Source: a virus (taxonomy: Duplodnaviria; Caudoviricetes). Taken from it: DNA of 64,000 nt. Below are positions 25,358 to 25,983 of this stretch, one piece after another (positions within the stretch are counted from its first letter, which is position 1; every line of letters begins with the position of its first letter). The notes beneath the pieces were generated by a model. It ran no database searches and was not told where the DNA came from. It saw only the letters and a list, made by a program, of their open reading frames with translations. Position numbers and translations under genes: made by a program. The stretch lies in the IMG/VR virus record IMGVR_UViG_3300017912_002752, one strand, 5' to 3'.

Positions 25358-25366
25358 ATCTTTACA

Positions 25367-25852
25367 TGACACAATGTCAGTTGCGTTGAGGGCTGAAAAG
25401 TTATCCACAATTTGCGAAAGTTATTAACAAAGTTATCAACATGACACGATGTCACATATATCGCTCATTTTCATAAACCCTTGAGCGTCAGAGGATTATG
25501 CGCTATTACCTAAAGTACCACTTTAACATGACAAAATGTCCTAAAAATTTCTCAGCCAGGAAAAAAATTGTTTTGCCGCAGAAAACGGACTTGTGCCTGT
25601 CTTAATTTCTGTATAATTCGTATATGTGGGGTAATTTGGGTCTGAGTTTATGAAATATGTGGTAAAATTATATTAGCCCTACGGATTTGATGGATATGTC
25701 GAGGTGTGACAACTTGTCCAATTAAAAAAAACACGGATAAATTAAGGAATAAAAGGGCACGAGTTTACCATTAAGTGGTAAAAAGTGGTAAAAAAGGGGA
25801 GAAAAGTGTGGTTATTTGTCTAACCAATGAAACCATCGGTTCATAATGAACC
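25367..25852. promoter_or_regulatory. Cluster of host-protein binding-site-like motifs (DnaA boxes, TGACA-N3-TGTCA, MraZ-like repeats, palindromes)
   Basis: TTATCCACA 25401, TTATTAACA 25421, TTATCAACA 25433; palindromes at 25367, 25442, 25529, 25707; AAGTGGTAAA repeats 25773-25812; GGTTCAT-A-ATGAACC 25838-25852. Confidence 0.55.
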
Positions 25853-25983
25853 AAAAAAGGACCATAATAAGGATTATCTTTATGATTAACATATACGCTA
25901 AATAAATATCGTCTGAGAACTTGTTTCGATGACTTATATGGGGTTATTTTAGGCCTGTTAAATTTCGTGGGTAATTAAGGACT

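Follow-up and report, generated by a model that had tools for sequence, protein, structure and literature searches.

The non-coding gap and its features

The window, by which we mean the whole stretch of 64,000 nucleotides analysed here, belongs to a large, marine, AT-rich phage (Duplodnaviria; Caudoviricetes) with a GC content of ~33% and with genes on the minus strand only. Contigs of its uncultured relatives reach 176-181 kb, and one-strand transcription is found there too. The nearest isolates are Flavobacterium phages, with a protein identity of only ~46% and without local synteny; the nearest of all, Flavobacterium phage immuto, has no synteny with the region described below, and a search of 50,697 phage records with this region and its surrounding 12 kb returned zero similarity matches. 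The phage encodes a set of chaperones, consisting of GroEL (532 aa), a DnaJ-domain protein (219 aa) and Hsp20 (28521-30778 and 4411-4761, both on the minus strand).

The non-coding gap proper is at 24306-25983. It is wider than the island with which we are concerned (25360-25983), which runs from the upstream edge of the second of two phage promoters to the stop codon of a 71-codon gene. Besides the island, the gap contains these two promoters, a non-coding unit of ~350 nt and three minus-strand tRNA genes. In the 176-kb relative (G002, 97% complete), no internal non-coding stretch is larger than the equivalent gap. Elsewhere in that genome, the region at 132-140 kb has a GC content of 40-47%, compared with the genome average of 33%. 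In the window, ~158 nt are inserted between tRNA-Arg and tRNA-Met (24605-24782, minus strand); the insert is missing from the 96%-identical relative L016, and has T-arm-like motifs, yet no tRNA is called in it by ARAGORN. The features in and next to the island are as follows.

25290 to 24940, minus strand: GC-rich non-coding unit of ~350 nt, promoter-driven and conserved in all relatives
25302-25360, minus strand: phage promoter copy, with UP core GATTTAACATAAACTTAACATTAAAAATTTGG, -33 element TTTG (25333-25330), a 20-nt spacer and -7 element TATCTTTA (25309-25302)
25367-25379, no strand: palindrome TGACACAATGTCA, directly upstream of the promoter UP core and kept in L016 and L007/8
25397-25442, plus strand: three co-oriented DnaA-family boxes, AAAGTTATCCACAA, AAAGTTATTAACAA and AAAGTTATCAACAT, read on the minus strand as TGTTRATAACTTT
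25442-25454, no strand: palindrome TGACACGATGTCA, fused to a DnaA-family box (GTCATGTTGATAAC on the minus strand)
25529-25541, no strand: imperfect palindrome TGACAAAATGTCC, a motif match
25583-25600, minus strand: conserved block containing GGCACAAGTCCGTTT, kept in the alignments, with no conserved hairpin
25624-25668, plus strand: isolated MraZ-type boxes ATGTGGGGTAAT (25624) and ATGTGGTAAAAT (25657), scoring 12.7 and 15.0 on the host single-unit matrix
25707-25719, no strand: imperfect palindrome TGACAACTTGTCC, a motif match
25742-25753, minus strand: conserved block ATTCCTTAAT, nearly invariant in nine genomes
25773-25811, plus strand: MraZ-operator-like array of four units at 10/11/10-bp spacing, once per genome
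25812-25892, minus strand: micro-ORF of 26 codons encoding the hydrophobic peptide MLIIKIILIMVLFWFIMNRWFHWLDK, kept in 10 relatives with coding-type substitutions
25940-25976, plus strand: weaker box-like elements GGGGTTATTT (25940) and GTGGGTAATT (25967), of direct-repeat families D5 and D11, upstream of the micro-ORF

The promoter at 25302-25360 is one of nine copies in the window (9516-35759), all on the minus strand. The class extends over ~57 nt, including a tandem TTTAACA upstream element, and its consensus, AAATTTAACAATTATTTAACATTAAAA-TTTGG-N19/20-TATCTTTA, is of the Bacteroidetes -33/-7 type. The gap has only two matches to TTTG-N20-TAnnTTTA, this copy among them, and the two promoters read respectively into tRNA-Arg and into the ~350-nt unit. 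The class is concentrated in a region of ~28 kb around the island; in the 176-kb relative, eight of the ten minus-strand copies (11 matches on both strands) lie within ~28 kb, at 33-61 kb. The clustered copies presumably form one temporal class. The ~350-nt unit has an invariant GGGAAAGTCCCCTCT and the blocks GGGGGnGGGTATTTT, ATCAGCAAGTTACAAC and CCGGGGTCGGTTTTTT, and has no match in Rfam. One relative, L002, is seemingly without the promoter of this unit.

The earlier note had described the island as free of ORFs and packed with motifs for several host proteins. All of the motifs are present where it placed them, but the island is not ORF-free, contains no IHF consensus, and has an exact DnaA box that is not conserved. 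The conserved ORF is the 26-codon micro-ORF on the minus strand, which is present in 10/10 relatives examined, with a conserved tail MNR-x-F-[HK]-[YW]-[LM]-D-[KR]; its substitutions are distributed over codon positions in the order 3 > 1 > 2 (for example 17:11:4). The perfect palindrome GGTTCAT-A-ATGAACC (GGTTCATAATGAACC) does exist at 25838-25852, but it lies within the micro-ORF, of which it forms the codon run F-I-M-N-R, and relatives such as L003 lack the symmetry. It is a by-product of coding. It was rejected as a terminator because it is inside the micro-ORF, and no canonical intrinsic terminator is found between the micro-ORF and the next promoter. The degenerate pair proposed as an IHF site has no WATCAANNNNTTR consensus in the island, and over the whole window this consensus has 6 matches compared with 10.9 expected. 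A dif-like site was also sought and none was found, the only resemblance being an XerD-arm-like 11-mer that is part of the promoter UP core.

The micro-ORF is located in the middle of the field of MraZ-type boxes, and the peptide is similar in size and make-up to division-inhibiting membrane peptides. SidA, Blr and MciZ are small membrane peptides that inhibit division.

The island could be aligned in nine genomes, of which the closest is 96% identical and the most distant similar in patches. Conserved among them are the micro-ORF, a block directly after its stop codon, a further TTTTACCACA, two short blocks, clusters of TGTTRATAAC, palindromes of the TGACA type, and the promoter. The block after the stop codon is nearly invariant; on the minus strand it reads CCCCTTTTnTACCACTTTTTACCACTTWATGGTAAAC, and it corresponds to the AAGTGGTAAA repeats, which the earlier note had recognised as phased at ~10 bp and which are present at 25773-25812. 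It occurs once per contig and is confined to 11 contigs of the viral collection. The flanks of the array contain many indels, and their identity among the genomes has fallen to ~68%. In 10/11 genomes the distance between the array and the stop codon of the micro-ORF is 7-11 nt, and the orientation of the array is constant.

An explanation of this conservation in terms of RNA was considered and rejected. The island matches no Rfam family even at E<=10, the fold of the alignment has a consensus energy of -0.84 kcal/mol with 0 covarying pairs, and single-sequence folding of the island gives a z-score of -0.78. An apparent hairpin, TTTACCA/TGGTAAA, is disrupted without compensation in L007/8. With no Rfam match, no consensus fold or covariation, and the one apparent hairpin broken, the island is therefore conserved at the level of DNA.

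The four palindromes of the form TGACA-N3-TGTC are present at 25367, 25442, 25529 and 25707, as reported in the earlier note. Over the whole window there are 5 such loci (8 strand-matches), compared with 0.75 expected, and 0/100 shuffles attain the observed number. The fusion of the palindrome at 25442 to a DnaA-family box is kept in L016, L003-6 and L007/8. The fifth copy, at 4850, is the sole palindrome outside the island, and is in a short gap (4762-4900, minus strand) upstream of the Hsp20 gene (4411-4761, minus strand), a gap that also contains the extra half-sites TGACAT and GTGTCAT; this suggests that one phage regulator may link the island to the chaperone gene. On the host side, TGACA-N3-TGTCA is absent from the mraZ loci, and each of five Bacteroidia genomes has at most one copy (0-1, like a control), in unrelated contexts. 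A host regulon behind it was rejected on account of this chance frequency and these contexts. The SOS (LexA-like) boxes of Bacteroidetes are GGA-N5-TCC and CTAA-N5-TTAG (PMC8565304), and the island palindromes differ from both. The palindromes are phage-specific and not a host element, and the simplest reading is that a phage-encoded dimeric regulator would bind them. No DNA-binding family was found among the small proteins encoded near the island and near the fifth palindrome. In the islands of L003-L006, L011 and L002, some palindromes are of the type GTTACA-N2/3-TGTAAC, beside TGACA-N3-TGTCA or replacing it; operator and regulator may have co-varied among the relatives.

The mraZ promoter of Bacteroidia and the motifs of the island

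The class of the host was approached through a GroEL match, which led to a Salinivirgaceae MAG (Bacteroidota), and 151 genomes of the class of this MAG were searched for MraZ. MraZ is present in 137/151. From these, 31 mraZ loci were retrieved, and upstream regions were taken from 27 of them. One unpublished genome (G098) is included in the 151-genome tally, and none of the 31 retrieved loci comes from it.

The host regions upstream of mraZ share a grammar: AAAGTTAT[C/T]AACA(A), then 3-4 boxes GTGG[T/G], then a -7 box, and then mraZ. The boxes are 10 bp apart, with A-rich spacers of six nucleotides, and the -7 box, TAnnTTTAC, follows them after ~11 nt. At least three GTG[GT]-N6 boxes are found in 21/27 of the Bacteroidia upstream regions, and GTTATCAACA (with at most one mismatch) lies within 3 nt of the first box in 14/27. 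In the published MraZ site, GTG(G/T) boxes are separated by six nucleotides, and most bacteria have three of these boxes and some have four (PMC12957436). The host boxes agree with it in the GTG(G/T) core, the six-nt spacers and the number of boxes, 3-4.

The consensus of the host unit is AAGTGGTAAAAA, and the phage units at 25773 and 25783 are identical to it. The two remaining units of the array, AAGGGGAGAAA (25794) and AAGTGTGG (25804), are degenerate, such that the layout is GTGG-6-GTGG-7-GGGG-6-GTGT, with one 7-nt spacer and one GGGG box. The array has the pattern of boxes and spacing by which the MraZ operator is defined (PMC12957436), and is not adjacent to mraZ or dcw as a promoter element. 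A 30-nt matrix was made from 21 Bacteroidia mraZ operators, and it represents a sample of the class and not the phage's own host species. On this matrix, 25775-25804 (plus strand) is the top site of the window, at 28.7 bits, compared with 27.9-43.7 for the host sites themselves; in 100 shuffles the maxima were 3.9±4.1, with a highest value of 16.6. The next unrelated site in the window reaches 3.3 bits, and is likewise within the island. In the 176-kb relative, the homologous block is the single best site, with 26.5 bits compared with 4.2 for the next. The block is present in every relative and scores 22-35 bits, and more distant phages without the island have no such site.

Single boxes also gather in the island, which holds 4/6 of the strong plus-strand MraZ-type single boxes in the 64 kb. 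The box at 25657 (TTTTACCACA on the minus strand) is invariant in 9/9 aligned genomes, and the elements at 25940 and 25967 fall below the matrix threshold and are kept only among closer relatives. On neither strand is the array overlapped by a -33/-7 promoter of the Bacteroidetes consensus. We also considered an antisense promoter controlled by MraZ and placed after the array, as in the host, and did not retain it: the sequence at that place, TTATTTGTC, has no match to TAnnTTTG and is fixed by the last codons of the micro-ORF, and we regard such a promoter as only a possibility. A profile search of the phage proteins found no MraZ or AbrB-type fold and no homologue of the DnaA C-terminal domain.

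The second class of motif is the DnaA-family box. The boxes noted previously are confirmed, with TTATCCACA at 25401, TTATTAACA at 25421 and TTATCAACA at 25433; compared with the DnaA consensus, TTATCCACA is exact, TTATCAACA has 1 mismatch and TTATTAACA has 2. Over the whole window, DnaA boxes with at most one mismatch are not over-represented (21 found, 28.9 expected). In the 96%-identical relative L016 the exact box is replaced by TTGTTGATAAC, and because of this the exact box in the present phage appears to be an accident of the motif family. Clusters of 3-6 boxes of the family are found in every relative, and TGTTRATAAC, the reverse complement of the DnaA-like boxes, has 5 matches in the window compared with 0.73 expected. 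These are nearly always co-oriented with transcription and are often paired, with an 11-bp phase, abutting the UP core where the phage promoter recurs; examples are 12039/12028 and 9628 in the window, with counterparts in the relatives. Over the whole genomes of the relatives, about half of all copies of TGTTRATAAC are within 2.5 kb of the island.

In the host, a DnaA-family motif TT[AT]T[CT][CA]ACA is found 70-100 nt before the start of mraZ in 25/27 genomes; its density is 35 matches in 5.4 kb, compared with 14 in the remaining 76.6 kb of the loci. The canonical TTATCCACA is at this position in some Bacteroidia genomes, and a spectrum of variants like that of the phage boxes stands where some Bacteroidia carry exact boxes before mraZ. 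In one genome (G123), three exact DnaA boxes precede mraZ and form one of just two clusters genome-wide; the second, of eight boxes, is non-coding, is presumably oriC, and includes TTATCAACA. Scored against the element just upstream of the host MraZ boxes, the phage boxes at 25397-25442 reach 16.4-20.2 bits. By these matches, the boxes AAAGTTATCCACA, AAAGTTATTAACA and AAGTTATCAACA correspond to the other half of the same host mraZ promoter. The most likely binder is DnaA, which is the leading candidate; TTATTAACA is two positions off the DnaA consensus, so DnaA is here a putative binder.

Both motif classes thus match adjacent parts of the mraZ (dcw) promoter of Bacteroidia, which bears out the comparison with that promoter proposed in the earlier note. 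Its wider idea of sites for several different host proteins holds for two classes, MraZ and DnaA-type, and not for the TGACA palindromes, the IHF pair or the GGTTCAT palindrome. Every 10-mer that the island has in common with the host promoters belongs to one of the two motif zones or to a single isolated box, and these 10-mers are all plus-strand and ordered as in the host. The 12-mer AAGTTATYAACA occurs 0-6 times in five host genomes, the same as a control word. A host regulon behind this 12-mer was considered and rejected, as its other sites precede genes for transketolase, MsrA, a response regulator or an NlpC/P60 protein, or are intragenic.

It is worth adding that the comparison reveals a regularity on the host side, namely that in class Bacteroidia a DnaA-family box nearly always precedes the MraZ boxes (25/27 sampled). 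This suggests that replication initiation may be coupled to dcw expression in the class, with an input from DnaA into the control of division genes.

Possible roles of the island

The island faithfully copies the MraZ operator of the host class and its DnaA-type box, and host proteins probably dock there. The reading that we prefer, tentatively and at a little short of an even chance, is that the island is a cis control region, a gate or sensor with predicted docking of host MraZ and of a DnaA-box binder. The phage would have copied the operator of the cell-division (dcw/mraZ) promoter of its host class. Host MraZ, an oligomer recognising GTG(G/T) boxes with a 10-bp spacing, would occupy the array (25773-25811) as well as the outlying boxes; the host reader of the DnaA-family box, most likely DnaA, would occupy the three copies of that box (25397-25442); and a phage-encoded dimer would bind the TGACA-N3-TGTCA palindromes. 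The bound proteins would determine how much of the transcription of the upstream early operon, of which the micro-ORF is the last gene, continues into the non-coding RNA and tRNA units, and also how strongly the promoter of the non-coding unit fires. Phage expression would then track the division and replication state of the host. Both the binding of these proteins and a gating or sensing effect, rather than titration or replication, are predictions from the sequence.

Control in cis is favoured because the orientation of the array and its place 7-11 nt from the stop codon are fixed in 10/11 genomes despite diverged flanks, because there is no intrinsic terminator between the upstream operon and the next promoter, and because the DnaA-type boxes belong to the grammar of the phage promoters, where TGTTRATAAC recurs co-oriented and in 11-bp phase. 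The lack of conserved RNA structure, and the lack in the phage of its own MraZ, AbrB-type or DnaA C-terminal domain homologue, are also in its favour. Against it, no consensus promoter lies over the array, so that the repressor-over-promoter arrangement of the host is not reproduced; the nearest promoter is ~480 bp from the array; and the two motif classes are ~330 bp apart in the phage, where in the host they are adjacent. Moreover, the host comparison is made with a sample of class Bacteroidia rather than with the actual host of the phage.

Two further readings are not mutually exclusive with control in cis. The island could be a decoy, in which replicating phage DNA strips MraZ (and DnaA) off the host chromosome and so deregulates the dcw operon, division and replication initiation. 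Each copy would offer 6-8 MraZ-type and 3 DnaA-type boxes, and no effect in cis would be needed. The sites match host operators as well as the weaker genuine host sites do, the array and isolated boxes together exceed the 3-4 boxes of a host operator, no promoter overlaps the array, and the phage has no MraZ of its own. MraZ acts in the host via a single, low-copy operator (PMC12957436), which also favours a decoy. Nevertheless we think a decoy unlikely: it would need no fixed place or orientation, whereas the array keeps both relative to the micro-ORF stop; there is one array per genome, not many; DnaA-type boxes are built into phage promoters elsewhere; and the best matches of a literature search included no published phage DNA decoy for a transcription factor. 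If it were true, the takeover device would be a nucleic acid, not a protein.

The island could also be a replication origin, at which the DnaA-type boxes recruit DnaA, the GTGG/ACCAC repeats serve as iterons, the promoter activates or primes, and the DnaB-type helicase of the phage is loaded. This fits a single-copy, conserved island located in what is, in the 97%-complete 176-kb relative, the longest non-coding stretch inside the genome, with three co-oriented DnaA-family boxes in 45 bp, phased A-tracts and a neighbouring promoter for a non-coding transcript. It also fits a phage that has a DnaB-type helicase and lacks a DnaA-domain protein, and T5-like phages hold DnaA-box arrays in a non-coding region (bioRxiv 10.1101/866236). 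However, box pairs occur at several other phage promoters, so they mark no unique site; a copied host MraZ operator accounts best for the "iterons"; and the helicase gene is ~54 kb away. We hold an origin, too, to be an unlikely account. Mapping of an origin by GC skew, over the window and the whole 176-kb relative, gave a monotonic cumulative skew with no origin signal; the skew is uninformative and no switch is visible, because all genes are on one strand.

It could be argued instead that all of the repeats are bound solely by phage proteins, and that the likeness to mraZ is convergence on short A-rich GTGG repeats. The phage-specific TGACA palindromes would fit such a view, as would the many small ORFs near the island without a recognisable family, and the degenerate third and fourth units of the array with their 11-bp step. 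It is weakened because two independent motifs match adjacent parts of one host promoter, each with 12-14 identical nt and without any change of order or orientation. In addition, few copies of the 12-mer AAGTTATYAACA are found elsewhere in host genomes, and the profile search gave the phage no MraZ or AbrB-type fold. We regard this view as distinctly improbable.

Comparison with known systems

The mraZ (dcw) promoter-operator is bound by MraZ, as Eraso et al. 2014 reportedly found. The island resembles it in that two phage units equal the host consensus AAGTGGTAAAAA, and in that a DnaA-family box precedes the MraZ boxes in Bacteroidia. It differs in that the phage array is followed by neither a -7 box nor mraZ, and is oriented against all of the phage genes. 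It also lies ~330 bp from the DnaA-family boxes, has GGGG as its third unit at an 11-bp step, and is accompanied by extra isolated boxes. Since it controls no mraZ and no promoter overlaps the array, the island falls outside the mraZ promoter family. The function of MraZ is itself still debated.

The origins of plasmids and lambdoid phages that combine iterons with DnaA boxes are gene-free stretches in which direct repeats and DnaA-type boxes occur together with A-tracts and a promoter close by. The island has all four of these as well. In contrast to the 17-22-bp iterons of such origins, its units are 10 bp long and of MraZ type, no initiator gene is adjacent, and the boxes are not unique to the site. 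There is also a likeness to the injection-stop region of the large, lytic T5-like phages, a region which is conserved and non-coding, with repeats, palindromes and DnaA-type boxes (bioRxiv 10.1101/866236). T5 has eight canonical boxes that lie in a terminal repeat and are tied to two-step injection, whereas the island has three mostly non-canonical boxes of a kind found also at promoters. No terminal repeat was found in the viral contigs, and there is no sign of staged injection.

Phages read the state of their host via borrowed operators: Spo0A boxes in phi29, LexA boxes in many prophages, and DnaA boxes in T5 and lambda. In the lytic phages phi29 and Nf, which carry Spo0A boxes, transcription and replication follow the developmental state of the host (PMC2731898), and the island resembles these in being phage DNA with sites for a host master regulator. 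It differs in the host protein and in the motif; furthermore, the Spo0A sites of phi29 overlap mapped promoters and replication ends and their binding has been demonstrated, whereas the sites of the island are predicted and have no overlapping promoter.

Among the best matches of a full-text literature search, none concerned MraZ sites in phage DNA. The finding here is one of host-operator sites in phage control DNA, the operator in this case being that of MraZ. If MraZ does bind the island, a marine phage of Bacteroidota would be tied to the master switch of its host's division and cell-wall operon. The island has its nearest parallels in the Spo0A boxes of phi29 and Nf and in the DnaA-box arrays of T5, and would work like these.
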